In this document: in pieces, positions 15,204 through 64,000 of the stretch | Layout: every line of letters begins with the position of its first letter | Position numbering within the stretch: the stretch's first letter is position 1 | Origin: Azolla caroliniana | Lineage: Eukaryota; Plantae; Polypodiophyta | Length of the DNA: 64,000 bases | Assembly (NCBI GenBank): GCA_043228905.1 | Contig: JBHGNT010000006.1 | Coordinates: 11,098,001 to 11,162,000, forward strand | Direction of reading: 5' to 3' | The notes under the pieces: model-generated | Databases searched by the model: none | Told to the model about the DNA's origin: nothing | Seen by the model: the letters and a program-made list of their open reading frames with translations, nothing else | Position numbers and translations under genes: made by a program

Positions 15204-15224
15204 CACGTGAAAAAAAGAGTTGTC

Positions 15225-24094: not shown

Positions 24095-24490
24095 TGGATT
24101 TATGTTGATTTATGAGTGCATTTGGGAGAATGTCATATGTTGATTTATGTTTTAAGTTTCCTGTTTCAAGTATGTCGTATGTTGATTTATGTTTTAAGCT
24201 TCCTGTTTCAAGTATGCCATATGTTGATTTATGTTTTAAGTTTCCTGTTTCAAGTATGTCATATTTTGATTTATGCTTCAAGTATGTCATATTTTGATTT
24301 GGGTTTACGATGTTTAAATTGGATTTATGTTCAAAGGATGTCATATGTTGATTTATGTTTCAAATATGTCGTATGTAGATTTATGTTTCAAGTATGTCAT
24401 ATTTTGATTCATGTTTCAAGTATGTTATAAGTTGATCTCTGTTTTAAGTTTTAAGTTTTAAGTTTTTTAACTTTTAACTTTTATGTTTTA
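24095..24490. repeat. 21/42-bp degenerate tandem array (ATGTTGATTTATGTTTTAAG...TTTCAAGTATGTC)
   Basis: Direct reading; it produces the repetitive ORFs at 24024-24430. Confidence 0.9.
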
Positions 24491-33500: not shown

Positions 33501-35152
33501 GGAGAACTCAAGATAGATAAATGATAGGAAAATAGAATACTCAAGAAGAAGGTGTATATTTCACAAGTAGAATGAGATTTACAAAATGTAGCATAACAAG
33601 GAGTCACAACCGACTTAGTATGAAGTATGAGGAGGGTGCTTTATATAGAGTCACCCTCTCTCTTCATTAACTTTACAACAACCACTCTCTCTCTTGGGGA
33701 ATGTGAAGGCTCATAGTCATGGGGAATATGTAACTCATTAGTTATGTGTTATAGAATATGATTCTATGACACATAGTTAATATGTAGAGAGTAGTGGTGT
33801 GACTCTTGACTTTTGAGTAATCATGGATTCTCAAAAGGTTTGTTCACACATTGTGCTATGTTGAGCTTGATTCTCAACACTTCTTATGGCCCTGTCTGCG
33901 CCCTGATATCACTCGCCATGCCCGCGACCAAGGTCCCAAGACCTTCAATGATGTGATCCTCATTGCCCAACGAATCGAAGCTTGTACGCATTGACGTTAA
34001 TGCCGGAAATGGCAACCATAATCTCACAACCAGCAAGCCCAGATAACCATGGCTGACGCAACATGGTTGGCCGAGCTTCCGGGAATCTAACTTCCGGGGT
34101 ACTGATAGAAGAGCCAGCCCCCCACGTCCAAGCGTCCGCCTCTTCTAGTTCACAGGTATGCACCGCTCTCGCCACCATTAATCACTCCACACACACCATC
34201 CTATTAGACTCTGGTAGTAGTATCTCTTCAATTAGCACTGCCTTAGTTCACCAATTAGGCCTCCCCACAACCACCGCTCCTTCTGTCCAAGTCCTTTTTG
34301 GCTATCACCATCATCTATACCACTCTCGCACGCAAGCCCACTGCACCGTTACCTTAGGCACTCTCACATTCTCACACCACTTTTATGTCTTGCCCCACGA
34401 ACTCCCCCCCCTCACCTTGGGTTGTGATTGATTTCGATGCTCACAAACTGATTGTCCCACAAGCTCCCCCTATCCCCCTCCTACACGATAGCCCCCATGT
34501 CCCCCACCTCAGCCAAGTCCAGGTGGCCCTCAGTCCCAAGGAGTGGTTAATCTTCGTCCGCCAATTGTTAGCTCGTTTTCCGTCACTAGCCCCCCAACCC
34601 ATGCATGCCGCTACTGTCTCTTTCCCGGTACAACATGTCATTCGTACCGGGGACGCCGCTCCCATCCGCATGGCTACACGCCGACGTTCCCCCCTCGACC
34701 ACAATCACATCGATGCTGCCATCACCGATATGGTCACCAAAGGTATTATCATTCCTTCCACCAACGATTGGGTTTCAGAACCCCACCTCGTCAAGAAGGA
34801 TAATGACAACTTCTGCTTCTGCATCAACTTTAGGCCTCTCAACAAAGTGACGATCCATGACCTCTACCCGCTCCCTCATGTGGACAACCTCTTGGACCAG
34901 CTCGGGGGCTCCCGTTATTTCACCTCCCTTGACTTAGCCTTGGGATATTGGCAAATCCTCTTAAAGCCGTCTGACGCCCACAAGACCGCATTCCGCACAT
35001 GACGCGGGCTATTCCAGTTCACCCGCATGCCGTTTGGTTTGTCTGATGCCGACAACACATTCCAACACATGGCAAACTCCATCTTTGCCGGTCTTATCAG
35101 TAAAGATGTCCTCCTCGTTTATCTCGACGACATCCTTATCCACACACCACAT
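27516..35152. mobile_element. LTR-less Ty3/gypsy fragment: inverted integrase core (27516-27888, minus) fused to gag-protease-RT (27889-35150, plus); interrupted by a copia
   Basis: Integrase DFMGPFPETPSGNKYILVITEYLTRWAE; gag KVRPKSFSGLPFEDVLAWLDHFE; protease ILLDSGSS; RT YPLPHVDNLLDQLGGSRYFTSLDLALGYWQI, MPFGL, VYLDDILI. The gag frame rejoins across the copia insertion (HVKLFF|LWP). Confidence 0.85.
28472..33879 (-). mobile_element. Full-length degenerate Ty1/copia LTR retrotransposon
   Basis: LTRs 28472-28935 and 33415-33879; 5-bp TSD CTTCT; PBS TGGTATCAGAGC (tRNA-iMet) 33403-33414; PPT at 28936-28947; gag-PR-INT-RT-RH order with frameshifts and stops. Confidence 0.96.
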
Positions 35153-37788
35153 TATTATTCACTTTTAGAGCCAAATACCTATTATCAACTGATTGTGCTA
35201 TTATCACTATGAGGTATTTTAGCTATTAAATCTATTACCCACTTTTAAAGCTAAATACCTATTCGACGAACATTTTTGCTATTATCACTATCATGTATTT
35301 TAGCTATTAAAGTTATTACCCACTAATGTAGATGCCTCTTATGCATGGGTAACACTTGGCACTCATGCACCCACCTTCCTCATGTATAAAAGGGGGGGTG
35401 AGTAATCTTATCAAAGGGGGGGGATACATAAGTGAATTACTATTGTAATAAGATAGGCAAGAAATACTATTGTAATCATCTTGGGATAATCAATACAAGC
35501 TATTTCGTTTCTCCTCTTTCTTTGACAAGAAGCTTGGTGATTACTTCTCGGATTCACAACTTTCTTTTCCATTGCACGCGTACGCCGTGATCAACATCAC
35601 AGTGGTGAATCCGACGTGAAATAGGAAAGTTAAGAGAGATGGAGAACCAACAAGCAGTCCCGGAGCCACGAATCAACCAAGAAGCTTTTGTGGAGCCAAA
35701 AATCAAAGTGGTGTTGCAAATGATTGAAAGAATGATGCAAACCCAAGAATGTGCAATTGCTCTTCAACGAATCGATCATGCTATTGACAAGCTTGTAGAG
35801 AAAATAGGACTCTTTGAAGGTAAAAATATATCTAAATTCTTACATGTATATGTTACTAAGATGGGAAGTGTAAAACGTCCAACACGATGTTCAAATGAAT
35901 TTTGTGAGGATGGTTGAACTCCCTTTGAGAAATAGAGTCTTTGAACTCGCAACAAGTTCTAATGATTGGGTTGCATTCGAACAAGCTTTATTAAATGAAT
36001 ACATTCTTGGTGATACAAATCGAGCATCAAGGAGGAGTTTCCTGGATTGGGTGGACAAAGAGGAAAAGAAGATTTTGGTGATAGAGTTGTTGAAAGAATT
36101 TGAAGCTCAGTATAACCAATTAACAACGACCAAAAGGACTCTTTTGGAACCAGAGAAGGTCATATTACTCTTGAAGGCATCAGACCGATCCTACGGAGAA
36201 AATTAGTTGCATTTCTTCATGATTGGACTACACCCACTGGTTTAGTGTCCGATTGGAATCGAGTACATGAAGCCTGCAACAAAATCAATAAAAGAGCCCA
36301 ATGGTGTGAATATCTTTCGATTGTTGGGGGTATGAACAAAATTAGTTCTCGAGATGAAGTGAAGACAACCACTAGGGAGGATACTAGGAGTTCATAAACT
36401 ATTTCCAAGGTACCTGTAAGAGTGATGGACGATCTTATCAAAGGTATAAAAGGTCTTTCATTACCAGTTGCAAGGCTACAAGAAGAAAAATCCTCATAGC
36501 CCCAAAAGGATTATGAAAGAAGATGGATATGGTGTGATAACATCAACCATTCATGAGGAGGGCGTGATAACTATCAAGAAGCGATAGACAGAGGAGTGAT
36601 AGTCTTCAAGGATGGTAAGATTCATTCTTCTAAAACTCGATTACCTCTCCGAACTAACTTTAGAAGAGGTGGTATGAGAAGGATCATGGAAGGTGCGGAA
36701 ACAAATAGGGCACAAGCTATCTATCAACCAACAATTGAAGTCATCCATGTTCAAGGTGAAGGAGGATCTAAATCTGAATTTTGGCCATGTATTTCAAAAG
36801 CTGCAAGAAAGGGTAAAATCGAGTTTAAAAAGCTGAAGTTTGGAGGTGATGTTGTCTGAAGCAATACTGGATGGTAAGATCTTGTGGATGTCCTCTCACC
36901 TTTCGCAAGGATAGCAACAAGCCAAGCCCATGAAGTGATCATGGAAGAGAAACGAAGAAGGGCAGAAAATGAAGATAAGAAGAAGTGGGAGCTCAGAAGC
37001 TTGAAAAAGAGGGAGACGGAAAATCTGAAAATGGTATGCCTTGATGTTGAAAAAAATAAGGATAAGAAAAGTCCCTCATTCAAATTATTATCAGATATTG
37101 ACGCTTCATCTAATTTAAAAAAGTATTGGAAGAAAGAATATTAGATAGCAAAGTGGAGCTTTCCTTGAGGGAGCTTTTGGGCATAACTAAAAAATAATTT
37201 CATGATGTAATAATAGATGGGATTAAAAGAAAATGGCAAAGTATTGAAGCCATTGAAAACCTAGGCAGTGAGGTGAAGAAATCAACGGTGGAAGTCATCA
37301 AAGGTGAACCAAGCTCCTCCATTGTTGGTACACAAGCTATTGTGACGACAACTTTTGAAGAGAAGTTGAAAGAACTAAAAAACTACTATGCTAAGAAACA
37401 TTGGGCAAGAGCAACAACCGAGACACCCGTGAAGAGTGGAAACCTTGAAGATCTGGAACATGGATGGAGGGTAAAATCAACTAATTCAACGACTGAGGAA
37501 CTTTATGGAGCTTGCCTGAACATCAAAGTCACCATTGGAGATGTGCCAATGGAGCAACATTTCGTTATCCAGAAGACCTCGTCATACCCAATGATTCTTG
37601 GTCAACTACATCACATCTTCTAGGATAGAGACGAATGTGCTTGAAGATGGCTCGACATATGCAAAGATTCGAAGTATCAATGGTAAAAGGAGTGTTCAAC
37701 TTCTTACTGTTAGGCAAGTCTAGCATGATAGAAATAAAGAAGAATTACGAATTAATTCATGTGGGTATGATATGTCATCTTATGAGTC

Positions 37789-37849
37789 AGATTTTTAAAT
37801 AGGATCATTGATGGGCAGGGACACAATGGTCCCAAAGCTTTCCTTGCCC
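37789..37849 (+). promoter_or_regulatory. Candidate -1 frameshift signal with H-type pseudoknot (element D)
   Basis: A_GAU_UUU_UAA, 6-nt spacer, stem 1 GGAUCAUUG/CAAUGGUCC; loop GGGCAGGGA is complementary to downstream UCCUUGCCC. Confidence 0.65.
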
Positions 37850-38886
37850 TGTAAAAATGTTTTCCGATTAATAAAACAATCAATACTTTCTATAATACAA
37901 TGCATGGATTTACCCATTACTTTGGTGTGAAAAGTCATGCACAAAATAAAGGGAGCAAGAAGATTTTGATGCATTGTGTACTTCAGGGATGACATAATTA
38001 TTTGGTATGTTGCTCAAATATTCAGATGTGGATATAGTCAAAATATTAGAAAATTTCTTGAATGAGAAAGAATGCAACAAAAGATTCGTTCATGTAAATT
38101 CTATTGAAATGTAACTTCATATTGCTGATTTTATTTAAAAAAATGGTTGTATAGATAATAGTGAAATAGCTACCAATAGCTATCACGGAATAACTAATGA
38201 TAAAAAAGCAAGTGAAAATGGCTATGCAATAATAGTTAACACTAAATTTAAACAATAGACAAAAAGGTCAAGCTTGTGGCCAAGCATCTGCCTATGGATA
38301 GTACTGAAATGAAGAAGAATGTTACGTTTGAGCAAATGTTACAGGATTCTAAGGATATTGGTCATAAGTTTACAAATGCTACTCTAGATCAACTAAAAAT
38401 TCGTGAGAATGATTTTCTTTTACCCGCTGTCGTGAAGATCCGTCACTACGCGCGGATCGTGAGGCGGAACTGTCGGGGTTCTGGACCGGAAGGATTCAAA
38501 GTCGGTACAAGCTTTGGCGCAAGCTTTAGCGAGAAAGTACTTAAGATAGATTGGGAAAGAGAGAAGTTGAGATCAAACGATTGAGAGAGATTGATTGAAC
38601 TTTTATCTTTGGATTTAAGAAACAAGTTACACGATCAATTTGATAACGAATTTCTTCTTCTTAATTTCATAACCCAAAAAAACGTGTTTTTTCTCCTCCC
38701 CCCTCCTTTTATAGATGCTCTCATGCATATGATGCATGTGAGGGTACAAGACATGCATAAAATGCATGTTTGCCATTTGGCGCTTATGTATTACATGTGG
38801 TGCATGATAACCATGTCACTCATTTTAGCTCTCATGTATGAGAATTTACATGTAAAAGTACAATGATAGAAATATAAATTCAACTA

Positions 38887-38958
38887 ATTGGCATGGCTTA
38901 ATGGTAAGCCAATTGACTCCTAACTTGGAGGTGCAAGGTTCGAATCCTTACTTGCCCT
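38887..38958 (+). ncRNA. tRNA-like / SINE-head-like Pol III cassette inside the LTR of element B (second copy at ~51637-51708)
   Basis: Box A-like TGGCTTAATGG with D-arm GCTT/AAGC; anticodon-loop-like CT-CCT-AA; T-arm AAGG-TTCGAAT-CCTT; GGCA/TGCC acceptor-like pairing. Confidence 0.65.
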
Positions 38959-41900
38959 CCTTGTATATGTATATGTTTATATATTTATTTATCTAGTCAC
39001 CGGACGCCGGTTCATCGGATGCCGTCGGTTACTGGTGCCTCGCCGGATGCCGTCGGTTACCGATGCCGTCACCGGATGCTGCCGCTGGATCACCGGCTCC
39101 ATCGCCGGTCCTGTTTTGGTTGGCCAAAACCCTTTACGAGTAGCTAGCCCACCTCCACTCTTAGTTCAAGTTACCTTGAACTCTCTATGCTCCACACATA
39201 GACACAAAGATAATATCTTTTGCTCTACCTTATATATGATGAGAGTCGTATTTGTCGTGCCTACGTGGGATATCTCACAATTTTCTCTTTTCCTTTCACA
39301 AACTTTATACCCTCATATCTTGACATTTAGTTGTTTGTTTCTCGTGTAATAAAGTGCATTCGAAACCTCCATCATTTTGTACTTAGATATTAAATTTATT
39401 TAAAATGTTATCTTCACAATTATTGTATTATGTGATTCATACTCGATTTCGTACGTTTTATGGGATTTTCACACTATTGCCGAAAATCTTCACAACATCC
39501 ACCCCCACCAAACCGCACATCCTCCGGTACGTGCCAAGATTTTGGCTACGGTGATCAATTAGATTCCTCCATGTCTTCATTTACATCCGCCCTATTATGT
39601 TCATCGTCGAGGTGATCGAGGTCAGGATCCTTGTCTTGTCTTTTCTTGAAAATCTTTACTCTTTTTCCCGCAATGGGTACGGCCAACCTTGATCCGTCTA
39701 GTTCCGCAAGGTGGTATGTGGCATTATCGTTGGCACTTGTCACCACATACGGCCCGAACCATCTTCTTGCGAACTTCCTTGTTGTACTGTGTTGATTGTC
39801 AAGAGTGCTGTCGTAAACCAAAACTCAATCCCCTTCTTCAATCTTCTCGGGACGAAGTCGATGCGTGTTGTCGAACCGAACTTTGTTCTTTACTCAGGCT
39901 GCCTCCATCATCTTTCGCGCTTTTCCTAAATCTTCAGGTCTTCTTTCAAGTTGCCTTATCCGCGCCGCTAATAACTCTTCTCGGCTCATCTCGTTCTCCC
40001 ACGGTATCGCTACCCATGAGGCGATCGTCCTTTCGATGGGCATAATCGGCTTTTGTCCATACATAAGCTCCGTCGGCATATACCCTGTCACCGAGCTATG
40101 TGTCGTTCTATCGGCCCACAAGGCATAGGGTAATAGTCGTGGCCAATTCCCGACTCGACCGTTGCATGCCCGTACGATGGCTTTAACGATAGGTCCATGC
40201 CCTCGCTCGATCTTCCCATTCGCTTCCGGATTGTAGGCAGTCATGAGGGAGAGCTTCACGCCTAGTCTTTCGAAGAGCTCCGTCGCTTCGTGCACGTCCA
40301 ACTCCCCTCAATCGGCCACTATCTTCCCTACACATCCATATCGGCAAACAACCTCTTCAAGCAGAAATTTGCAAACGGTTGAAGTCGTCTTATTTGTCAA
40401 GGCTCGTCCTTCCACTTGATTTGTCAAGTCTTCCCTTACCAGCGCTAAGTACTTCATTTGTCCCACTCCCATTGGCATTGAGACCAGATCCACCATCCAT
40501 TTGAAGTGTATGGTGAGTGGGTATGTCGGCTGTAACTCATCACGATGACGTATATTTGAATATATTTGGCAAGTTTCGCATGTGGACACGAAATGGAGTA
40601 CATCTTTGTACATGCTTGGCCACCAGTACTTCTCCTTCAACTTTTCGAACGTCGCCCATGTTCCTCTATGACCTGCCCAAGCACTCTCGTGGAATTCGGT
40701 CATCAGCGTCTCTTGCTCTTCTTTCTTTACCACCACTCGACGTGGTATTCCTGTCCTTCTTTTTGGATGTCGCCAAAGGAATCCTCCCTTCAAGAAGTAT
40801 CGGTAAGCTTTCTTTCGGATTTGTAGGGCCTCCTCCTTTGTCAACGAAGCATCTATCGTCAATGTTCTTAGGAATCTACCGATGAGTAACCACTCTCCTT
40901 TGTACTCGTTCTCGTTGAAGGTGTGGAGGGTTTGCGTGTCCTGGTCTTCCGCCGACAATCGAGCCATCTTGAAGAAGTCGAGGGTGACATCTTCATCTTC
41001 CGAAACCATGTTACTTCCATTTGAAAATCTTGCCCTCGACAGCATGTCAGCCATGGCGTTCTTCTTCCTTGCAATGTGACGGATCTCTAGGTTTAAAGAC
41101 TTGATGTAGGCAATCCACCTTAGCATAGCAAGATCTGGGGTCGCACATCCCGAGACCATTCCGAGAATTGGGAGACAATCTGTCTCTATTATCACTTCTG
41201 ATCCGATCAGGTAATCTTTGTCCGTCTTCACTACCGACACAATACCCCAAAGTTCCCGCTTGACTTGGGCATATCTTTGTTGCTGTTCGCTAAGAACCTT
41301 TGCTCCGAACCGGACGGCATATCGCGCATTATCTTCACCTTCTTGATTGATGACCCACCTGATTCCGGTTGGGCTCGTATCTACGGTCACGTAAATTGGC
41401 TTTCCTTCGGCATAGTCAGCCTTCCTTAGTGCCGGAGCTTCAAGAAGCAGTTTCTTTAATCTTCGCATCGCATTTGTGTGCTCATCTCGCCATTCAAACT
41501 TCATTCTTTTCTTTAGTAGTCCATATAACGGTTCGGCGACATGAGCGTAGTGAGGAATCCATATATGATAAAACGCGCACACTCCAAGGAACCTTCGAAC
41601 CTCCGAACCTCCGTTTGGTTTTCGCATTCTTCTTTCATGTCTTGGATTGCGTTCACTTTGGATGACGAGGGCTTCCGGCCGTATGCTCCACACAAGTGAC
41701 CTACCACCAAGATCTCCGGTTGCCCGAATGCGGATTTTTCTCCCGAAAATGTCAAATTCGCATCTTCGAGCCTTTGAAGCACCTTCTCGCAATCTTTCAT
41801 ATGATCCGCAACGAACTTTCTACAACCTTCCTTATCTTTCGATTCATCTTTCTCCTCATCCGAACATCCTTTTATCGGAATATCATCCAAGAATGGCATC

Positions 41901-42994
41901 GTGATGTCCGGGATGCAATCCTTCAAGACTTTATTCATGGCATTCACCATATGAGCCACCGAGTTCGTTGCGCCTTGGGGTAAGGTACACATCCGCACAA
42001 GCCCGATTGGAGTCCTCATGGTTGTAATGTCCCGACTGTCGATCGCCAATTGGAATTGGTCATATCCGGAGTAGAGATCGCCAATGGAGTAGATGGACCG
42101 GCCCGCAAATGCTTCGGCAAATTCGTCCATGCTCGGACCGATTCAGGCATTTCGAATTGTCACCTTGTTGACGGGTTGAAGATCTTGGATGAATCGCAAT
42201 GATCCATTCTTCTTTGGCACCGTGAACCACCTATTGGAATAAGGAGCATTCGACGGTTCTAGAATTCCCATACTCACCTTCTCCTTTAAGAGCTCGATCA
42301 GCTTCGGAAGGTGTGCTCTCGGAACCGGTATCGGTTTCAAATTCCAAGGCACATGAGGCACCGTGAAGATCACCATCGGCTCTATAACCTTTGGGTCGGC
42401 GCTTCCGATTTCTCGTGGGAAGAATGCGAAAGCCTTCCCATGTCTCTCAAGCATATCGCGAAACATTCGATCCTCTTCAGGGAGAAGGAAATCCTTCTTT
42501 CCAACTCGTAGCTTCCCCTTCGTCTCTTTGGTGAAGACATGACCTATCTTCTTCGGATGTCTTAAGCTTGGATCGTTTGCTACTTCCTTAATCTTTTGCC
42601 AGCTATCTTCCGGTAACGGAGCTGCAACTGGCTTGATCTTCTTATCCACCGTTTTATATTTCGTGTTGATGTCAGCTTCCTTCATCGAGATGCCACGACG
42701 GTATTCATCGATGATAGCGTACATGTTGACGGAGTTAACCGAAAGCACCCGTTGGTTGTGAAGATAGCTCAAGTCCATGACGTCCTCGATTTTGGCAATG
42801 GTGTCGTTAAATGAGGATTCTTCCATAATATGAGTCACGAACTCTCCTTCTTCTATTATGTTTTCTTCTTTCAGCATCTTCTCGAATTCTTGTATCCGGT
42901 GCTTGTGCTTCTTGTCGGGTAGTACTAGTTTACATGCGCCACTAGGTGTGACACATGTTGCTTCTCCTCGCAATCCACGCACTCTTCTTTCTTG

Positions 42995-43057
42995 TGGGGT
43001 CTTGTGATTGCTCGGACTATTTGTGCCCTATGCTTCAATAGTCCGCTCTAAAAATCC
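42995..43057 (-). promoter_or_regulatory. Candidate programmed -1 ribosomal frameshift signal between protease and RT (element B)
   Basis: G_GAU_UUU_UAG, 5-nt spacer, perfect 9-bp stem CGGACUAUU/AAUAGUCCG; the downstream pol ORF (42143-42982) is in the -1 frame. Confidence 0.7.
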
Positions 43058-45117
43058 GAGGATTCGCCTTCGAGACTATCTCGATTCCTTTCATGATTGG
43101 CTGGCACCGTTAGGAATTGGACCGATCTTTGGTTGTCAAGACTCTTTATTCGTGCAAAGGCTGCTCCATTATCGAACACTTTGGTCTCCATCCGAGATGA
43201 TGTGATATAAGGTTGCCCTAGGATGACAAGATGTGATGCCGATTCTTGTACGAAGAAGTGTTGATCCATCTCCACATCCCCAATTGTGACTTTGATATTG
43301 GGACAAGCTCCGTACAAGTCCTCCGTAGACTTTGTTGCCGTGCGAATCTTCCATCCGTGGTTTGTATTGATTGGCCATCTTCCTTTTTTGTAGAAGTCGG
43401 TTGACATGAGATTGATCTCTGAGCCGTGGTCGATCAAGGCTACCACGGTCTCTTTCTTCTCCCCGATCTTCACCGGCGTCTCCGTTGGCGCTCGTGCCCA
43501 ATGAGGTCAAGTATAGTGGCTGTCCACCATATCTTCATCGACTTCGTCTCTTGCCATCGTTATGGCATTCGTTTTTGCTTTTTGCGGCTTCTCTTCTTCT
43601 TCGTCCGATTGTTGTCTCTTTCTCTTTACAAGGTCCACGATCGTGTGATGGAACTCCTTCTTCGTAATGCCAAGCAATTCCCTCAAGGACAAAGCTACGT
43701 GGCTATCAAGAACTCGTTCTTCGAGAATCTTCTTTAGGTCCGTCGTCCGCTCTATGTCCGACCTTAGCTTATAGGTAGGTATAGTCCTTGTCCTCCGAGC
43801 GGGGTCTTCGACACCAACCTTGACGGGCCGAACCGTGTCTTCAACGCGTATGCTCGGCTCCCCTTTTCGGCTTGATTTTCGTTCCTCCGTTTGTAACGGT
43901 CGACTCGTCTCCGCATCGTCCTTCTTTTTCGCGTTCCTTGTTTCATGTCTTTTTGATGGGCCTTGCTCTTCTATTCTCTTTCTCTTTTCTTCGACGAACA
44001 CCTCGTGGTTGTCGCACATCACCTCTGCGAGTATGGTGTTGTCGTCCACCGGATCCGTCTACCCGGTTATGCTTTGCACGCTTCGGTCCGCAAGCTCTAC
44101 CTCGTTCGATGTGACTTTTCCCTTCTTCTCATATTCGAGAACGGAAGTCCAAAACTTTGCTCCCACTCTAGCAGCTTCAGTCTTGTTTTTCCCGACTCTT
44201 ATTCCGGCCGACCCAGCATAGTACATCGCATCCACATGAGTCGCATCGGCATCCTCCATAGATTTCTTCATTCCTCCTCTTCCGAAATTCACCTGTAGGG
44301 GTTTTCTAGTCTCACTTGAGCGGATCATGTTGTCCTCTATGTATACGATATTTTGTCGAATCGCCTCTCGAAGGCTCGCACAATCCCTTCTCATGTGGTC
44401 CATGCTATCGCACCACACGCATCTAAAGGGTTCTTTTCCTTTAGGGCCCCAACGATTCATGTTGGCTAGCGTGACCTTCTCAAACTTCTTCGCTAGCTCT
44501 TCAATGATGTCATCATCAATCTTCTTTTCTTCCACGTTACTTTGTCTTGGCGGCTCAGCTACTTTCGGCGGTCTTGCTTTCTCCGTGGTAGTCGATCCCG
44601 TCAAGTCGGTGTCATCAACCCATTGGCGACGCTTGTCGAGCCTATTGCATGCCCGCTTCACCGCGATCCAGTCCGCTATGAGCCCATTTGCTTGGGTATC
44701 ATCTTCGAGAAGAGTCCCCAACTCCCGTCTATCCTTTATGTCCACGGCCTTCAAGAAGTACAAAGTCTTGTCCTCTTCAAGCAACACTTGGTCCGTATTG
44801 GGGAGACGACGAAACATCTGGTCGAATTCGTCGTACACCCTCGAGACGCTCATCTTCTTATTCTTCTTCTCTATCCACTTCATCAGGGCATGTCGAGTCA
44901 TCCTCGTTGAGTCTTCGGTCACGAACTCCGCTAGTATCGTTTTCTCGAACTCGGACCATGTTGTCTTACCTTCTTGAAGCTCGATGACACGTCTTTGAAT
45001 GTTGTTGGCGAAAACTCTCTTGAAGCTTGCGATTTGACGTGCCTCGGACACGTCCCTCTGATTCATCTCCCTTCTATATGCATCAAGGAACTTCGTAACG
45101 TTCCTTCCATCGAATTG

Positions 45118-45455
45118 TGTTGAGCGGCAAGCTCAACCGGAGCCGGATCGGCTGAATAAGCCGGAGCCGGTAAGCGAGACGGATCGGGCGAAACGGATTG
45201 GTATGACGGTGAGCAACCGAACTGGCAAGCAGTGGAGGCCGGGTGCAATCCGTAACTGGAAGTCCAATCCGAAGCCTAGTATAGGATAGACTACTAGGTA
45301 GCTATAGTCTCGTAGTAAGTGTTAGATGCTCGTGTGAGCATTGAAGTACATGGTACTTCTATCAGTCCCAAGAGGACTTGTATAAATAGTGCTACTTAGC
45401 ACAGTGTGTAGATAGAGTCTCGATATAATTTTGAAATAGTGTTCTGCTCTCTCTG

Positions 45456-45517
<62 letters not shown>

Positions 45518-48500
45518 GTTCTCTGTTTTTTTACGCTTCCGCAAACACTTACGTTTACATGGTATCAGAGCGTGAGGGTTGAGAACCTATGCTGCAGACA
45601 TTTACTCTTGAGAAGAAAACCCTAACAGGTCGAAAACAGACACAGTAGAAGACATGGATAGAGGCATGGCTACGTCGCTCCCGGTGGAGAAGCTCGACAG
45701 GAGCAACTACACATCCTGGTCTTACAAGATGCACTAGTACCTGCTTGGACATGGGTATTGGAGTTATGTCGAAGGAGCGAATGATGCGGCGCCCGACTCG
45801 GCACAGAAGGACTTCCCGGTATGGGAACAGGCGGCAAGCAGGGTGATGTACTGCTTCGCGTCTAGTGTCGGCGATCAGCTACTCAGCCACATCCGTGACG
45901 CCAAGACACCGAAGGATGCTTGGGGGAACCTGAAAAAGGTTTTCGCCGCAAGCACCACTGCTCGGAAGCTGCAACTTAGACAGGAGTTGAGCAATGTTCG
46001 ACAGAAGAACATGTCCGTGGTAGACTACACGGGCCGGATAAAGGAGATCTGGGACTCGCTCACCTCTATCAATGTTACCGTAGAGGAAGACGAGATGGTG
46101 CAGGTATGTCTCGGAGGCCTGGCGTCCAAGTTCGGAGGATTCCGGACTGCGGTGTGTACAAGGGAGAATACCCCCTCATTCTTCGACATACAATCGATGC
46201 TCCTTGTAGAGGAGAACCACGCCGGTGCATCTACCAGTGCATCCCCGGACAACCGAATGCTGTACACGGGAACGGATCAGCTCCGTGGGCATGGTGGAAG
46301 AGGTGGGTCGGCACGCAATGGAGGCGGCCGGCAAGAGCAGGAACGGAGGCACTATGAGCGTGCCGACAGCAGTTCCGGGACTCCAGAGAAAGCGAGTGCT
46401 GGAGAAAGCGAGTGCTGGAGAAAGCATGCCGATTCGGACAAATCCGGATCCGGCAAGACCGGTAAGGATGGCCGGCAAAACTCGCACTACGCAAACGGAT
46501 TAGGAGGATCCGGAACCGGAAAGGCCGGTAAGGGGCCAGCCTTGGTGATGAATCACAAGGCAAACTCAATGAAAAAGACGACTTCCAAAACGGAGGAAGT
46601 GTGGTATGTTGATTCCGGCGCGTCGAACCACATGAAGAGCCACAAAGAGTGGTTCTCCTTTCTAGAGAAACCGGATCAACCAGGAGTAGTCGAAACCGGA
46701 GACGACACTCCTCACCCAATCGTGCACGTCGGAGAAGTCCCTCTAAGCCACATTGGACAGAAAGGAAAGCTGATGAACGTATTACACGTTCCGACAATCA
46801 CGAAGAACCTGGTGTCCGTCGGTCAGATTGTCGACCAGGGGATGCAGGTGTGGTTTACGCACCTCGGGTGCTTCATTGAGGATGAGGGCGAAGTCATTGC
46901 GCAAGGGCGCAAAGACGGGAGGATGTTTATCCTCAACACCAATGACTTTGGCACCGCTCTGTTCACGAAACGACAGAAGGTCGAGTCGGACATCGACCTA
47001 TGGCACAAGCGTATAGGCCACGTCAACTACCGGAGGCTTCAAGACCTGCAAACGAAACAAGTCGTTTTCGGTTTGCCGAAGTTCAGCGGCCGGAGAGCCG
47101 AAATTTGTGAAGCCTGCCAACTTGGGAAGCAACACCGGCTTCCATTCCCCACCGAACGGAACCGGAGCCGTAACAAGCTCGATCTCATCCATTTGGATGT
47201 GTGGGGACCGACACAAAGTGTAAGCCTTGGCGGGAGCCGATACTTCGTCTCCTTCAACGATGACTATACTCGCCATACTTGGATCTACCTCATTGAGCGG
47301 AAGAGCGAAGTCTTCGACTGTTTCTGGAGCCTCCAGAAGATGGTGGAACAGGAATCAGAGAGGAAGATCAAATGCCTTCGGTCGGATGGCGGAAAGGAAT
47401 ATTTTTCGGGCCAATTCACTAGTTATCTGCAGCAGAAGGGAATTCAGCGAGAGTTCAGCTGCAGATACACACCGGAGCAAAACGGTGTGGCCGAAAGGAA
47501 GAACCGGACACTCGTCGAAGCGGCAAGGGCGATGCTGGAGGAGAAGAGCATGCGCCGACTCTACTGGGCTGACAAGGTGTTAGCTCATGAGCTGTATTTC
47601 GGGCGCAAGCCGAACTTAAGACACCTTCAGATATTTGGCAGCATAGCGTATGTGCATGTGCCGGATCAGAAGCGGAGAAAGCTGGATGCAAAATCGGAAA
47701 AATGCATTCTAGTCGGCTATGCTCAAGAGCAAAAGGGGTATAAGTGCTTTAACCCCCGAACGAAGGAAGTCTGAGTTAGCCGGGATGTCGAGTTCGATGA
47801 ATCGGCATCCTGGTACTCCGTACCGACTCCGACTTCTGATCCCGACCCAATGTCGGAAGATCAGGCCAGTGAGCCTGAATCATCCCTGGCAGAGGATGAC
47901 GAAGCCTGGACTCAAGATGAGAGTCCGGAATCGTTACGGTTAAGTGGACCGAACGAGCAACTGAGTCGGTTGGACCAGTCGGATGAAGAGACGACAAGTG
48001 GTGGAGACTCTGCCGTGCTCTCCCCGCGCAAGGAACCGAGGAAACGGTTCACGCGCAAAGAGAAGGGGAAGAGGAAGATGCCTGAATTCGAAACCGGCAA
48101 CAATGAGTCGGATCGGTGCGTCTCCGACTCTGGAAAGGAGAAAGGCGGATCTTCGAAAACGAAGACCGAACTGGCCAAGAAGGGCCTGAAATCAGGTGAC
48201 GGTGCGTTGCGCAGATCAACCTGCCAGAAGGATCCCGTCATACGGTACAGGTATAATGAATACATGGCGCATCATTATGTGTACATGACTAAGGTGACAG
48301 AAGTGCGTGAGCCGGAGAGCTACGCAGAAGCGGCAAAGGACGCAAATTGGCATGCCGCTATGGACGAAGAAATGCGGGCACTCGACGCCAACGAAACTTG
48401 GGACCTAGTTGATCCTCCCCGTCACTATAAACCGATCGGATGCAAGTGGGTGTACAAGGTCAAGTACAACGCCGATGGTTCTGTTAACCGGTACAAAGCC

Positions 48501-50976
48501 CGGTTAGTGGCGAAGGGATACACGCAGACCCATGGAATCGACTACGACGAGACCTTCGCTCCTGTGGCGAAGATGACGACGGTTCGTGTGGTACTGGCGG
48601 TTGCTGCGGCAAGGGGGTGGCATCTTCACCAGATGGATGTGAAGAACGCCTTCCTTCAAGGAGATCTTGAAGAAGAAGTCTTTATGACTCAGCCCCCCGG
48701 ATTTCACTCGGAGATGAGCAAGTCGGCGGTATGCCGACTGAAGAAGTCGCTTTACGGCTTGAAGCAAGCCCCCCGAGCTTGGAACGCGAAGATCACGCAC
48801 CGGTTGCGTAAGCTGGGGTTTGCTGTCTCTAAGTCAGACTCTTCGTTGTTCATCCGGCAAGGCTCTGACAGTCCGGTATGTATACTCTTGTATGTGGATG
48901 ATTTAGTCATCATCGGACCGGGTCTTCCCGAAATCAACCGCGTCAAGTTCCGGTTGTCGGACGCCTTCGAAATGAAGGACCTGGGGGACCTTCATTATTT
49001 TCTTGGGATCGAAGTGATCCGGACCCCCGATGGCATATTGCTCTCACAACGACATTACGTGTTGAATATGCTGTATAAGTTCGGCATGACGGATTGCCGA
49101 CCTGTCTCCACACCCCTAGACCGGAAGCAGAAGCTCCGTCCCAACTCCGGACCGACCTGCAATGAGAAACGGTTCCGACAGGTTGTCGGAAGCCTGATTT
49201 ACTTAACCATCACCCGACCCGACATCAGCTATCCGGTCGGGATGGTAAGTCAGTTCATGCAGAAGCCGACCGTGGAGCACCTTCAGTGCGCGCAACGAAT
49301 ATTACGGTATTTCAGCGGCACTAAGGACCGGGGACTGCTATACCGGCGAGGTATACCCGAAGAGCTTGTCGGTTGCACAGATGCTGACTGGGCCGGCGAT
49401 GCGTCTGATTGCCGCTCCACTTCCGGATACATGTTCTCCATAGGTAGCGCGGCCGTTGCGTGGAGCAGCAAGAAGTAGCCCACAATGGCTTTGTCAAGCA
49501 CTGAGGCTGAGTACCGGGCCGCTACCGTTGCCACTTGTGAAGCCATCTGGCTTCGGCGACTGCTGTGAGACTTGCGGATCGAGGTACCGACCCCGATCCC
49601 GATTTACTGCGATAACATGAGCAGCCTGTAGCTCGCCAGAAACCCTGTGTTCCATGCTTTCACAAAGCACATCGAGGTGCACTACCACTTCGTGCGTGAG
49701 CGGGTCCTGAGCGGTGAAGTTGACCTACGGTATGTTCATACGGATCGGCAAGTTGCCGACATCTTCACCAAGCCGCTCGGATCGGACAAGTTGCAACACT
49801 TTACCGACATGCTTGGTATTCAGCATCTCGACGTGCTGCACTTGAGGGGGAGAAGCAAGGGCAAAGGCCAAAAAATTGTTGAACCTGTCGGTAAGAGGAG
49901 AGCCGGAAGAAGAGGAGACAAGAAGATGAAGGAAGCCGAGTCGACGAAGGAAGTTGACACATCCGAACAGGTCGGAGCAAGCGGCTGTGAAGAAGAGTTG
50001 TGCACTCAGGAAGAGAAGTGCATGCTGTGCGGAGGTCATCACGACTGTATTGACCATGATGCAGAGTCGAATGAAGAATTCGATTTCGGTTCACCGGCTG
50101 AAGAAGTCGAGGGAAGCATGGAGAAGGCCAAGACTCGGAAGTGGTCCGATGTGGTGAGAGGCCTGAAGCCGGAAGTCGAATCGGAGTGTACCGATTCGGA
50201 CAAGAGCTGGAACGAGTCGGAGATAGCTGACTCGGATCAACAGATAGATCCGAATGAGTTAGATCGATTGAAGGCCAAGGGGACACGGACACAGCGGAAG
50301 TCGATGCCATCGTGGGAGAACCGACGGATCGGCAAGCGCCGGAGTCACAACAACGTGAGTGTTGAGATGGGCCTATTGAGCAGACATGTCGACCGAGAGG
50401 GTCGAGGCGCGCAGAACCAAAGGGGTCGCGGCAAATGGGACCGGACCGGACGAGGAGCGCGAGCAAGGCGTAGTGATGCCAGGAGAAGTCGGTTGGAAGA
50501 ACCGACTGTCACAGAGGTCGACACTACGACCCCACCTCAGGTTGAGCTTGAGGGGGAGTGTTGAGCGGCAAGCTCAACCGGAGCCGGATCGGCTGAATAA
50601 GCCGGAGCCGGTAAGCGAGACGGATCGGGCGAAACGGATCGGTATGACGGTGAGCAACCGAACCGGCAAGCAGTGGAGGCCGGGTGCAATCCGTAACCGG
50701 AAGTCCAATCCGAAGCCTAGTACAGGATAGACTATTAGGTAGCTATAGTCTCGTAGTAAGTGTTAGATGCTCGTGTGAGCATTGAAGTACATGGTACTTC
50801 TGTCAGTCCCAAGAGGACTTGTATAAATAGTGCTACTTAGCACAGTGTGTAGATAGAGTCTCGATATAATTTTGAAATAGTGTTCTGCTCTCTCTGTCTC
50901 TCCCTCTCTGTCGAGCTCTCTGTCTCTCTCTGTTGTTCTCTGTTTTTTTACGCTTCCGCAAACACTCACGTTTACA
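45118..50976 (+). mobile_element. Full-length, nearly intact Ty1/copia LTR retrotransposon inserted in the gag of B
   Basis: LTRs 45118-45559 and 50559-50976; 5-bp TSD AATTG; PBS TGGTATCAGAGC 45560-45571; PPT 50548-50558; gag-PR-INT 45843-47774, RT 47850-49478, RNase H plus long extension 49647-50564; a few in-frame stops. Confidence 0.96.
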
Positions 50977-52914
50977 AATTGGCCCTCGAGCTCTACGACA
51001 CGATCGACAACCTTCTCCACGCTCGCGTCGTTGTCCTGAGATCTCATCATTTGCTCGACGATTAGCATCATTCTTTCGAGCTCTCCCGCTTGGTTGCTTG
51101 AGGACGCCATCTCCAAGTATTAATCTCGACTTGATCCTCCCTACCGCCTCTTTCACGTCGGGTTCACCACTTAATTATGTCGTGAAGATCCATCACTACG
51201 CGCGGATCGTGAGGCGGAACCGCCGGGGTTCTGGACCGGAAGGATTCAAAGTCGGTACAAGCTTTGGCGCAAGCTTTAGCGAGAAAGTACTTAAGATAGA
51301 TTGGGAAAGAGAGAAGTTGAGATCAAACAATTGAGAGAGATTGATTGAACTTTTATCTTTGGATTTAAGAAACAAGTTACATGATCAATTTGATAATGAA
51401 TTTCTTCTTCTTAATTTCATAACCCAAAAAAACGTGTTTTTTCTCCTCCCCCCTCCTTTTATAGATGCTCTCATGCATATGATGCATGTGGGGGTACAAG
51501 ACATGCATAAAATGCATGTTTGCCATTTGGTGCCGATGTATTACATGTGGTGCATGATAACCATGTCACTCATTTTAGCTCTCATGTATGAGAATTTACA
51601 TGTAAAAGTACAATGATAGAAATATAAATTCCACTAATTGGCATGGCTTAATGGTAAGCCAATTGACTCCTAACTTGGAGGTGCAAGGTTCGAATCCTTA
51701 CTTGCCCTCCACACATAGACACAAAGATAATATCTTTTGCTCTACCTTATATATGATGAGAGCCGTATTTGTCGTGCCTATGTGGGATATCTCACAATTT
51801 TCTCTTTTCCTTTCACAAAGTTTATACCCTCATATCTTGACATTTAGTTGTTCGTTTCTCGTGTAATAATGTGCATTCGAAACCTCCATCATTTTGTACT
51901 TAGATATTAAATTTATTTAAAATGTTATCTTCACAATTATTGTATTATGTGATTCATACTCGATTTCGTACGTTTTATGGGATTTTCACACTATTGCCGA
52001 AAATCTTCACAACACCGCTAAGACACAATGTTTTTTCAAAATATGATTGCTAGTCATGGGAAAACATTTGCATTTCAGTTGAGTGAAATTGGTTGTGTAG
52101 ACTCAACATTTGTGGAACCAATGACTATATTCACGGTTCCACATATTCCTTGGAATTTAAGGCCTATCCATGTTCCTCAAGCCCAAATACCGCAAGTAAT
52201 ACCTTTGCTTAAGGAAAAATAGAAATGGGTATCTTGGAGCCATCAGATGCCCCCTACTTGAATAAGTGGTTTACTGTACCTAAAAAGAATGGTTCATTAA
52301 GGTTCATTCAATATTTACAACTTGTCAATAGAGTTACTATTTGAAACGTTAGTGTTGGACTAATTGTAGATGCCTCTATAGAAGCTTTCACAGGAAGAGG
52401 TATAAATTCCATGCGTGATTTATATTCAGGATATGATCAATTTCAGCTTGCTATTTATAGTCGTGATATAATTACTATAAGAACACCAATTGCAAAATGC
52501 TCGGTGAATAAGAAGGATGAAAAATTCATGCCGAACGGATGTAGAAAGTTTGTTGTGGACCACATTCGTGATTGTTAAAGAATCCTTTGAAGGTTAGACG
52601 AGGTTCATCTTACATTTTCAGGTCAAAAATCCATGTTTGGGGCTCCCAAAGTTTTGATTGTGGGGCACATGTGAGGCCCCTACGGAAAAAAGGCATCCCC
52701 AATTAAGGTAAATGCAATTCAAAATCTAAAGGATGATTGTAAGTCTCTAACGGAAGACGTAGGTTTCTAGGTGCTTGTGTGTTTTACCAAATTTGGATTC
52801 CACATTTCGCACATGTGGCTGATCCACTTTATTAGTTGCTTAAGAAAAATTCAAGGTTCCTTTGGATTAATGTACATATAGAAGCAATTCGCCAACTAAA
52901 GGAAATGTTATTGA

Positions 52915-57700: not shown

Positions 57701-58252
57701 ACCTGGATGCCAACTCGTTAAATTCGACATCTCGGCTCACTCAAACTTGTTTTGTTCGGGGTTATAGCACTTATAACCCTTTTGCTCATGTGAGTAGCCA
57801 ACAAAGATACACTTTCATCGCCTCTCATCCGCCACATGCACATAGGCTATGCTGCCGAATACCCTACAGTGTCATAAATTCGGCTTATGCCCGAAATACA
57901 GCTCGTGTGCTAACACCTTATTCCCGATCCATTTTTGAATGGCTGTCTGGACCGCTTCGGCCTAGTAGAACTTAGGCATGCTTTTCTCCTCAAGCATCGC
58001 CCTTAGCACCTACACAATCGACCGGTTCTTCCTTTCGGCTACGCCATTCTGTTCCGGTATGTATCAACAACTTAATTCCCTCCAAATTCCTTTCTGCTAC
58101 ATATAATAGTTGAATTGGCCGGAAAAGTATTCTTTTCCGCCATCCGACCATAGATACTTGATCTTTCTCTCTGTTTCCCATTTGACAAAACTTTGCAAGT
58201 TCTGAAAATAGTCGAAGACTTCGCTTTTCTTCTCGATGAGATAGATCCATGT
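54770..58252 (-). mobile_element. Element E: 3' part of a degenerate Ty1/copia related to the 45-51 kb copia
   Basis: 3' LTR 54770-55231 (start TGTTGAGCGGACAAGCTCAACCGG on minus); PPT 55232-55240; RH, RT and integrase fragments; cut at 58252 by LTR C. Confidence 0.9.
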
Positions 58253-59471: not shown

Positions 59472-59649
59472 TGTAACTATTCTAGATAATAAAGCATCTA
59501 TGTATAAAAAACCCTAACATAATGATTCTTATTGATAGTAGATATATAGGTACAATCTTGGAAAGTAGTTACATATGAACCTTCATGGTTCTTGAAGTAA
59601 AAACAATTACATGTGAACCTTCATGGTTCTTTATTCATGGTAAAGTATT

Positions 59650-60916: not shown

Positions 60917-63900
60917 TGTCGTGAACTTATTGCTTCACGATGTCAAAACAATGTCAAAAATCTATAGAAAAAAATTTCCTTTATGGAGCTTGTGACGAGG
61001 AGCATGTGCAAATTTTCGGTCCGTGAATTGGAGTTTTGGAGCGCAAGATACAAGCTTCGGAAGGATTAATGTTACTCGGGACACAAATGTAATTATGTCA
61101 AAAGTGGGAGTCAAACTTAAATGAGGGCTATCTCTATAAATTCTCAAATGTACAACTACAAAATCGAATTTGTAGATTCAATAAATCAAATAATAGTAAA
61201 TATAAATAAATAAATAATACCAACCGCCTCAAGAGGGTGGTAGGGCGGTTGACCATCCTATATAAGCCATGCCCATGGTGCCTAAAGAAGGGAAGAAGGA
61301 GAAGAAGAAGAAGAAGGAGAAGAAGAAGAAGGAAAAGTGAGTGAAGAAGCTCACGTGGGTGTGGGATGCAGAGCTCGCCAAAGAAGATGGTGGCCTGCAT
61401 AAATCAAGACAAGAGTTGAAGAAAAGAAACAAAATAGAAGAAAAGGAAGAAATGGAAGCGGTGTATCTTAGATGCCACTTTGTAAACAAATGGTTGTGAG
61501 TTTGAAAATTTATATATAAAGTGAATGAGAAAGACAAATAAATAGAAACCAAAGAGATTGAAGTGGTCTATCTCAAACGCTTCTTCTCAAATAGAGTTCG
61601 TGAATTCAAGTCTTGCCACGTAACTTTTGGCAAATAAATATTGTAAGTGGTTGTTTTACAAATAAAATTCTTTTCACACCATCTGCGATTACGCCTTGTC
61701 ACCCCGATCATCCCCGAGTCACAGAACCCCAGCGGTTGCGACACACAACCACAATCTTCTTGACACAAATTTGGTGAACCCGACGTGAAGTGTCGTCGAC
61801 AAGGGGAGTTTTGGAGTTAAAGTTTTCCAAGAGAAGGATGGAAAATCAAAGAAAATGGCGGATAAAGGTGCCAACACAGAGATGGCAAATAAGGGCTTCA
61901 ATGAAGATATGAAAAGTTTCATGATGAAGATGATGAATCAGATGCTTCAAGAGCAAAGTGCAATGAACCGGATGGAAAGTGAGTTAACGCTCGCCGTACA
62001 AACGGTCATCTAAAGGATAAGCAAATTTAATGGCGAGGACGTCACCCAGTTCCTTGAGGTCTACGAATACGAGATGGCCAGTAGAGGGGCAACCGGGGTA
62101 CAAATGGTGTCGCATATCAACCGGGTTTGCACACTTGATGTCTGAGCGAGGGTAACGGAATTATCGGAGAAATTTTGTGAAGATTGGCCTAGGTTTCATC
62201 AAGCATTGCTTGATGAATATATGCTAGATGACCAGACCAGAATGTCAAAGAAAAGCTTTCTCGAATGGATCGAGAAAGGGGGTAAAGGACTCTTAGTGTT
62301 AGAGTTGTTGAGAGAGTTCGAGAAAAGATATAATGAGCTCTCGGTGAAAGACCGAGAACTATTACAATTAGAGAAAGTGGATTTATTCGTTCGAGCGACA
62401 GATAAATCTTTTAGAAAAGATATCACCATCCTTCTAGAAGACCGGACAAGCACAACCAGTTTGGTGTCCGATTGGGCAGAAGTACTCGAGGCTTGTCAAG
62501 TACTAAGAAAGAGGGCGCCAAGGATAGAGGATAGCTATGACAATAGAATAAAGACAACAGCCAGAGAACATCCAAAACAAGAATCAAGAACTCGAACGGA
62601 TGATAGCAAAGGAAAGGAGCCAAAATCTGCGATTGATGAACTGATAAAGGGAATGCGGGATCTACAACTCAAGTTCACAAAACTTGAGAAGGGTGAAAGC
62701 TCGGGTGTTCAACAAAAGCCCAATGAATGAGAAAAGGTTGAATTCGTCCACCGATGCATATGGTGCAATAACACGGAGCACCAAAAAAGGGATTGGCAGA
62801 GCCATAAGGAAGCATTAGAAAGAAATGTTATCTTCTATCAAAATGGGAGAATCCACTCCTCGGAGACCCGACAACCCCTAAAAACCAACTTTGGCAAAGG
62901 TGGGATGAAGAATGTGATGGAGGAAGAAGAGTCGAAGAATGTTCAAACAATGTGCTTTTCGACTACTTCCGGATTGAAGGTCGACGATCCCTAGATTGGA
63001 TCAGGATTCTGGGGAACAATGATAAAGTCCGCTACTGACAAAAGAGTCCAACCACAGGACTTGCGAAAGGTCAACGACGAAATGAGGAATAGTACTGGGT
63101 GGGATCACCCTGTAGATTCACTCACAACAATCACAAAGATAGCAGGGGTGAATGCCCACGAAGTGACAGTCGAAGAAAAGAGAAGGAAAACTGAAGAAGT
63201 GGGACCTTCTAGAAAACCCGAGAACAAAAGAGATGAGAAACTGAAAGAGTTGCTGCAGAGGCGATGAAAGAAGACAAAGGTAAGCAAAAGATAGCCCCGT
63301 CATTCAAACTCGCCTCCGACATCGAAACATGTGCTAGAATCAAGGATTCTAGATAGTAAAGTTGAGTTAACACTCCGAGAAGTACTAGGGATCGCGAAGA
63401 AGGAATTTCATGAAGTGATTATTGATGTGATCCGGAGAAAAAGACAAGTGGTTGAAGAAATGGGTGGAGTAAATACCAACATGATACAGGAGGAAGATGA
63501 AGATACAAAGATTGCATTGTTAGCGGGGGTACGAAGTGCGGACATGCAGTGTAGTCATGAAGAGGAAAGAAGCCATTACACCCGCACACACTAGGCTCGG
63601 GCGACAACTGAGGCTCCAATCAGAATTGGAGATTAGATGGAACTATCTGTGGCACTCATCAACCACGGCTCCGAGATTAACATCATATCATCTGATTTCT
63701 ACAATCGCGGGAGATGACCAATAGAGAGAAACCACGGGTCGAAGGTCAGAGCAGCGACCGAGGTCATAGAGGATTTATGTGGCGCATGCCCCAATATTAA
63801 AGTTACAATTGGGGACGTATCAATAGATCAAAACTTCTTTGTCCAAGAGAAGAAGTCATTTTATCCAGTAATCCTAGGGCAATCGTACATCACAACAATA

Positions 63901-64000
63901 CGAATGGAGACTAAAGTGATTGATAACGGAGCAACATTTGCTAGGATTCAGAGTTAGGATGGGAAAAGGTCGGTACAGTTCCTTATTGTTCGACCAAATC
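60917..64000 (+). mobile_element. Element G: 5' LTR (60917-61765), PBS and degenerate gag-protease of a Phygy-like gypsy, running off the window
   Basis: TGTCGTGA..TTGACA; PBS TGGTGAACCCGACGTGA 61772-61788; gag and protease homologous to B (LTLREVLGIAKKEFH, ALINHGSEIN). Confidence 0.9.

Follow-up and report, generated by a model that had tools for sequence, protein, structure and literature searches.

The window analyzed here is a stretch of 64,000 nucleotides (G000:C6:11098001-11162000) from a eukaryotic, repeat-rich host genome of 523 Mb. It contains a nested stack of retrotransposons at 38428-52014: a Ty1/copia element lies within a Ty3/gypsy element, B, which is itself inserted in the reverse transcriptase (RT) of an older element, D. 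On the minus strand, element B spans 52014 to 38428. Its 5′ LTR (51178..52014) and 3′ LTR (38428..39497) are ~98% identical, the latter being ~230 nt longer, and a GCGG target duplication flanks them at 52015-52018 and 38424-38427. A primer binding site (PBS) complementary to tRNA-Trp is found at 51153..51169 (−). The gag (DUF4100) and aspartic protease frame (43048..45132, −) carries two in-frame stops, and its 5′ part is split by the copia element (45117-50857), whose LTRs are 98% alike and which has close relatives at ~55700-60900 on the minus strand. The pol gene (39560..43056, −; 3′ end approximate) starts in the −1 frame and encodes a linker of ~130 aa, RT, RNase H and integrase, with several breaks. 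Pfam searches returned DUF4100 and an aspartyl protease upstream of the junction of the two frames, both weak and below curated cut-offs, and RT, RNase H and an integrase zinc finger downstream of it.

Element D retains a decayed gag-protease and the start of pol on the plus strand (35800..38423; 5′ end approximate), and its RT continues beyond 52018. In the window, B and D are both dead elements with numerous breaks. A third family, E, is represented by a gag-protease at 62000..64000 (+), with its G_GAU_UUC site and predicted pseudoknot just past the window end (L061:2562-2636). The window further holds a second copia element on the minus strand (28472-33880), with terminal repeats 98–99% alike and ~4.9 kb apart, a fragment of another gypsy-type protease-RT upstream of D (34000-35150; LLDSGSS and YLDD motifs), and tandem arrays at 5834-6259 (142-nt units), 15093-15747 (131-nt units) and 24106-24481 (14/28/42-nt units).

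The site after the protease in B, D and related families

The Gag-protease frame of B ends with the heptamer G_GAU_UUU (43051..43057, −), followed directly by a TAG stop (43048..43050, −); D has A_GAU_UUU and a TAA stop (37789..37798, +). The sequence-only reading had located both sites correctly (G GAT TTT TAG, minus 43057-43048; A GAT TTT TAA, 37789-37798), and the 9-bp stems that it described after the stops can be read directly in the sequence. In B, stem 1 of the predicted pseudoknot pairs CGGACUAUU (43037..43045, −) with AAUAGUCCG (43013..43021, −), corresponding to registers 13-21 and 37-45 when the heptamer is numbered 1-7. Stem 2 would pair 43026..43030 (−) with CCCCA (42995..42999, −), 14 nt downstream of stem 1. 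In D, stem 1 pairs GGAUCAUUG (37802-37810, +) with CAAUGGUCC (37824-37832, +), and the 5′ strand of stem 2 is GCAGGG at 37815-37820.

As proposed earlier, RT of B lies in the −1 frame with one TAG in the loop (43030-43028), which cuts stem 2 of the window copy to 3 bp. This TAG is not the sole break in pol; further stops and a frame change lie beyond it. The idea that reverting it to TGG would both open the −1 frame and restore pairing with CCCCA is matched by the relatives, since all 29 B copies other than the window's have TGG as the loop codon. For D, an H-type fold is likewise predicted, but with a different stem 2: the pairing initially noted, GGGCAGGGA/UCCUUGCCC, is confined to the window copy among 30 D copies. 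In the D family, GCAGGG instead pairs with register 59-64, forming 6 bp in 22 of 30 copies and 5 bp in 5, and this pairing is kept in the window copy too (3′ strand at 37847..37852, +). The A_GAU_UUU of D is a decayed state, G_GAU_UUU being present in 20 of 30 copies.

A 58-nt piece containing the B hairpin is more stable than 200 of 200 shuffles (z −3.55). The equivalent D piece is unremarkable in nested folding (z −0.92), which favors the stem-2 helix over stem 1. When the window and its flank were searched with a covariance model of 26 related sites, exactly three sites emerged, namely B, D and E (E-values 2.6e-10, 6e-6 and 7.5e-8), the last just past base 64000; this result holds partly by construction, because relatives of all three are in the model.

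The signal occurs in six families of the host genome (B, D, E, F, G and H); D, E, F and H have the same signal as B, and heptamer, stem 1 and stem 2 are found together in 32 of the 40 loci tested. Of the best 30 B loci, 28 have the gag-protease stop directly behind G_GAU_UUU; of the other two, one retains the heptamer but no stop and one retains the stop behind an altered heptamer, so that each feature is intact in 29. At 15 of these 30 loci, the −1 frame stays open over the 500 codons to the end of the locus. In 20 full-length B copies, selected for an open gag-pro frame, ORF1 measures 734–752 aa, terminating at the site in 19 of them; ORF2 is always in the −1 frame, begins 16–28 nt before the end of ORF1 and is unbroken over 1170 aa in two. 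None of the 20 has the single continuous ORF that had been named beforehand as evidence against recoding. In the D family, the 9-bp stem 1 is present in 26 of 30 copies and a stem 2 of 5–6 bp in 27. ORF1 is 710 aa long in F, 739 aa in G and 709–726 aa in H; in F and H, pol lies in the −1 frame and is unbroken over 1152–1163 codons in many copies.

Three copies with long open frames (L303, L304 and L305) were considered as single-ORF families and rejected: L303 is one ORF fused through an indel upstream of the site, L304 is rearranged and L305 has a normal site. Family E shows tandem G_GAU_UUC heptamers 12 nt apart (L158:2977-2995; L061:2550-2568), and only the second is correctly spaced to the pseudoknot.

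Predicted pseudoknot and spread of the signal

We compared 26 representatives, one natural copy per cluster and two for a few, with protease-region identities of 57–96%. L188, L061 and the six single- or broken-copy clusters L057, L084, L090, L091, L179 and L185 were left out. Statistics on this set are partly circular, because its members were picked by heptamer pattern and intact frames. The alignment is gap-free across the signal, and the spacer from the heptamer to the conserved first pair of stem 1 is 6 nt in 24 representatives and 5 nt in two, both with pol in the −2 frame. Positions 14-25 pair with 33-44 to form stem 1, whose eight core pairs are paired in 202 of 208 cells. Over all twelve pairs, pairing reaches 85%, compared with 27–41% for slid registers; the upper four pairs are only 46–81% paired. 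Two-sided changes occur in 10 of the 12 pairs and are spread over several tree branches, and the covariation score was reached by none of 500 shuffles, a control that ignores relatedness.

Stem 2 would form between positions 27-32 and a strand 11–16 nt downstream of stem 1. It is better than 95% of same-locus control windows in 25 of 26 representatives, and own partners pair better than swapped ones (permutation p ~1e-5, relatedness not corrected). Its pairs differ between loci, for example GCGAGA/UCUCGC, CAAGG/CCUUG and UGAGGG/CCCUCA. Both stems therefore covary, as the sequence-only reading had anticipated for a working signal. The comparison predicts a local H-type pseudoknot in fixed register with two interleaved, covarying stems: stem 1 of up to 12 bp, a 1-nt loop 1, a stem 2 of 4–7 bp abutting stem 1, no loop 2 and a loop 3 of 11–16 nt. 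Searching four loci against Rfam returned no family matching this pseudoknot, the sole hit being a sub-threshold match to the RSV PBS.

The signal extends well beyond the host genome. A metagenome scan yielded 80 loci, 70 of which have the heptamer at most eight codons from the stop and 10 of which lack it; G_GAU_UUU/C or G_GGU_UUU accounts for 68 and G_GUU_UUU for two. The G preceding the site is a wobble base in codons for nine amino acids, with a background third-position G of 28%; because the search pattern required G, the unbiased figure for it is 70 of 80 loci. Where the metagenome sequence reaches RT (64 loci), the path from the site into RT is open in the −1 frame in 58, open in the −2 frame in two and broken in four. 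At the protein level, [DGNV]F occurs within the last eight residues of 66/71 and 18/21 Gag-protease homologues (proteins ending 50–80 residues past the protease GxP motif), against a background of 4.8%. It is found at the extreme C-terminus or five residues before it, and Physcomitrium, Riccia and Adiantum entries are included. Even very distant gag-protease relatives terminate in DF, NF or GF (P0253, P0261, P0286, P0301, P0303 and P0314). In one branch (L168, L175, L190, L192; P0002, P0081 and others), the stop lies five codons beyond the heptamer, at the top of stem 1, and the proteins end DF/GF-x-x-x-PL. A distant relative on one contig, P0229, encodes gag, protease, RT and integrase in a single ORF. 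A scan of a viral contig set for relatives of the signal-bearing elements found none.

Lineage placement and translation across the site

PBS, target duplication and domain content place B and D as decayed members of a Phygy-like Ty3/gypsy lineage. The PBS of window B and of B, F and G copies is complementary to the 3′ end of genomic tRNA-Trp(CCA); three tRNA-Trp(CCA) genes lie inside 1.5 kb at L112:43-1520. Wherever the ends could be resolved, in 8 of 13 LTR-bearing B copies and 7 of 10 F/G copies, an NCGN target duplication is seen (GCGG at window B); one of the B copies shows a one-base difference at a single end. Pfam found only RT, RNase H, zinc-binding and integrase core domains in three intact pol ORFs, with neither aRH nor chromodomain. 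Physcomitrium homologues are ~50–66% identical in the protease region, and close ones end DF-x-x-x-PL. The tRNA-Trp PBS, the 4-bp NCGN duplication and the lack of an extra domain are all as in Phygy of REXdb (PMC6317226); with a length of ~8 kb (7.4–8.0 kb in resolved copies), the elements lie at the lower edge of the Phygy range (7.7–10 kb).

The lineage differs from that description in its ORF layout. In the accessible part of Neumann et al. (PMC6317226), Phygy is listed as 'ND' for ORF organization with no frameshift signal given, and a GAG-PROT frame overlapping RT-RH-INT, as found here, is missing from the table. The overlaps tabulated there concern only gag/protease (Tcn1, Selgy and SIRE), and the protease/RT splits only a spacer (Ogre) or a stop (Ogre and Retand). 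The sequence-only reading was thus right to set a break after the protease apart from the usual gypsy position between gag and protease, but it missed the protease/RT split in Ogre and Retand (PMC6317226). Those two Tat elements share with our lineage an expression break at protease/RT; unlike it, Ogre has a spliced spacer of ~274 bp and Retand a single stop; in addition, the two possess aRH, make 5-bp target duplications and use other primers.

Overlapping ORFs are also known in Ty3/gypsy elements of non-seed plants, namely Tcn1/Tf1-sushi chromoviruses and Selgy, where the overlap is at gag/protease rather than after the protease. In RSV, an alpharetrovirus, the protease lies in the Gag frame and the primer is tRNA-Trp, both as in the present lineage. 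RSV also uses a −1 shift with a pseudoknot (PMC5009743), whereas the present elements are LTR retrotransposons without env that have another heptamer and a two-stem knot without RSV's stem 3. For Tf1/sushi elements outside fission yeasts, −1 shifting is predominant (10.1101/2022.12.06.519325). Pea enation mosaic virus RNA2 has a functional −1 site with the heptamer G_GAU_UUU, and dianthoviruses use G_GA (PMC5009743). These umbravirus and dianthovirus signals share the heptamer and a nearby stop with ours, but employ a bulged stem-loop and long-range pairing rather than a local H-type knot with an 11–16-nt loop 3. In geometry, the predicted knot resembles the IBV class (stem of at least 11 bp in IBV, up to 12 bp here; PMC7618472).

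These observations suggest, with a probability of about 0.88, that the Phygy-like lineage expresses pol by a pseudoknot-aided −1 frameshift at the heptamer after the protease. The Gag-protease frame would end at G_GAU_UUU/C, which pol overlaps in the −1 frame, and the H-type pseudoknot 6 nt downstream would cause a minority of ribosomes to slip by −1, presumably through tandem slippage. Slipped ribosomes would produce a Gag-protease-RT-RNaseH-integrase polyprotein and most would stop, releasing Gag-protease. If the pseudoknot folds in vivo, protease would be made 1:1 with Gag, and RT and integrase would be rationed. The pseudoknot-stimulated −1 recoding of RT/IN postulated from the window is thus supported, as a sequence-based prediction, by the two-ORF layout, the heptamer, the fixed geometry and the covariation. 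Counting against it are the 10 metagenome loci that lack the heptamer and the four with a broken frame, the single-ORF copies P0229 and L303, the Riccia gene models discussed below, the incomplete pairing in the upper part of stem 1 and the nested fold of D. The features of classical −1 PRF are present: a relaxed G_GA-type heptamer in the zero frame, a 5–9-nt spacer and a −1 downstream ORF without a conserved start.

The main competing explanation, that pol comes, as in Ogre, from a spliced RNA in which the stop is lost and the frame restored, with the stem-loop acting in splicing or packaging, draws on Riccia gene models (P0145, P0152, P0156 and others) in which predicted introns bridge protease and RT, the junction being similar in three, and on the site of the −2 clade described below, which contains CAG|GU and so resembles a splice donor. 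Yet the Riccia junctions vary widely (gaps of 71–245 aa), and in 60 of the 64 metagenome loci that reach RT, one frame of the would-be intron runs from the heptamer to RT with no stop; that frame shows protein-level selection. The Ogre-type layout of non-overlapping ORFs separated by a non-coding intron was not found; here the ORFs overlap and the stretch codes in the pol frame. Splicing would also leave unexplained why the heptamer sits at a fixed 6 nt from the pseudoknot. A false intron was once drawn over a programmed frameshift in Tcn1 (10.1101/2022.12.06.519325), and the introns drawn over the frameshift site in the fused Riccia models are probably false as well. Contigs of four sequencing runs compared with the B and H sites gave no informative junction; one 191-nt contig spans the B site ungapped, but it comes from a run only guessed to be RNA and is too weak to use. 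We regard splicing as very unlikely.

Reinitiation or internal initiation at an AUG downstream of the Gag-protease stop, helped by RNA structure, is less probable again. A stop followed by structure could favor it, and some families have an early AUG (codons 4–6 in L151 and L155). Across the lineage, however, the first AUG of pol lies anywhere between codons 4 and 108, and the overlap of pol with the heptamer never falls below three codons. The stretch before the AUG comprises 1329 codons free of stops in the 26 representatives, where ~109 stops would be expected at off-frame density, a count that is partly circular because intact copies were chosen. Over 274 codons compared in 7 pairs, this stretch has a pN/pS of 0.51 when read as pol, the two alternative frames giving 0.84 and 1.02. 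A wandering AUG behind a stop-free, selected stretch favors entry at the heptamer over both reinitiation and splicing. That the split is instead a fixed inactivating lesion, with Pol supplied in trans and stems arising by chance or serving another step, we consider barely credible: most copies are broken and the single-ORF relatives P0229 and L303 exist, but the boundary is shared by relatives from moss, liverwort and fern, protease identity falling as low as 57% in the sampled DNA, pol is unbroken over 1150–1170 codons in many young copies, and stems 1 and 2 covary.

If the frameshift reading holds, it would fill the 'not determined' ORF entry of a major repeat lineage of non-seed plants and would add a third route by which RT and integrase are rationed relative to Gag-protease, beside the Ogre intron and the Retand stop. 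It would also account for false introns in gene models and would provide dozens of compact, naturally covarying frameshift pseudoknots for plant ribosomes.

A sister clade with pol in the −2/+1 frame

Family G (L273-L278) groups with two metagenome loci, L167 and L170, in a single clade (tree support 100/99) in which pol lies in the −2/+1 frame. The clade has AG_GUU_UUU, a 5-nt spacer and a conserved pseudoknot with 12/12 stem-1 pairs and a 6–7-bp stem 2, and its −1 frame closes within 0–5 codons in all loci shown but one. Among 30 sampled copies, 29 have AG_GUU_UUU; of the 29 in which RT was matched, 28 have it in the −2/+1 frame. The pol frame is unbroken over 1152–1153 codons in 6 of 13 family G loci of the host genome. 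These six, examined over their whole length together with two others, have both ORFs intact and LTRs 99.4–100% alike.

To reach this frame, the clade likely shifts by −2 under the drive of its pseudoknot rather than by +1 or another route, a reading that we hold with some reserve. AG_GUU_UUU is the −2/−1 site of PRRSV (PMC7618472), and the optimal spacer for −2 shifting, pseudoknots included, is 1–2 nt shorter than for −1 (PMC3458567). That spacer work used a U6A heptamer, on which a change of the first base abolished −2 shifting (PMC3458567); P-site re-pairing in the sister clade would therefore be poor, as in PRRSV. Like PRRSV nsp2TF, the clade has a −1 frame that closes almost immediately (mostly after 0 codons, after 5 in L170). 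PRRSV differs in having no downstream RNA structure and in requiring nsp1beta and the CCCANCUCC motif, whereas the clade has a pseudoknot at 5 nt. This motif, 10 nt downstream in PRRSV, is absent from the clade sequences, where the pseudoknot occupies its place.

A +1 shift, for instance by tRNA-Phe moving forward at UUU_G/U or by a shift at the nearby stop, would lead to the identical frame and is a less probable candidate for this clade. The antizyme precedent shows that a 3′ pseudoknot can aid +1 shifting (PMC5009743), and the intact copy L278 (LTR identity 99.8%) carries A_GAU_UUU, which would be poorly suited to −2 slippage and counts against it. The change from GAU to GUU, however, lets the A-site tRNA re-pair perfectly at −2 and offers no gain for +1. 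The octamer is identical to the PRRSV −2 site (PMC7618472) and is retained in 29 of 30 sampled copies, and a spacer shortened by 1–2 nt favors −2 with pseudoknots (PMC3458567). We lean, by a little, toward the view that an ancient, land-plant-wide −1 signal was retuned to −2 in one active clade through two coupled steps, a spacer change from 6 to 5 nt and a heptamer change from G_GAU_UUU to AG_GUU_UUU; the single origin of the clade on the tree counts against this. Since the −1 and −2/+1 sisters have a common pseudoknot and are one spacer base and one heptamer base apart, the direction of the frameshift is testable. If the −2 reading is true, the clade would represent a cis-pseudoknot-driven −2 frameshift required for LTR retrotransposon replication. 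It would also provide a natural, evolved replicate of the mRNA-tension model, hitherto shown on engineered cassettes.

The mechanism is already known in kind, and its position, spread and frame switch appear new. Our literature search, whose coverage lay outside most subscription papers, two relevant older papers and bioRxiv supplements, found no description of a post-protease signal. Skipper is said to have been described with a protease/pol boundary by Leng et al. in 1998, and Gao et al. reportedly surveyed gag-pol recoding in 2003; both could lessen the novelty. PMC7466625 does not mention frameshift, ORF or gag, and the accessible parts of PMC12786077, PMC11963269, PMC5911963 and 10.1101/2022.12.06.519325 contain nothing on a post-protease signal. 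Within the part of a 2016 review that was accessible, the plant recoding cases named, after a 2003 survey, are only +1-frame ones, and −2 shifting is recorded for phage Mu, arteriviruses and Trichomonas virus 1 (PMC5009743).

An 18-base signature covering the G site and the start of its stem has 104 genome matches, corresponding to ~100 copies of the family. The 323 genome matches of a 15-nt pattern of the −2 site were rejected as a measure of family size, because 17 of 18 extra sites lie in an unrelated repeat and have no protease, stem or open frame, the remaining one being a damaged G copy. This unrelated repeat (L323-L340) carries the same 15 bases near one end, and many of its copies are paired ~6.4 kb apart in an LTR-like manner.
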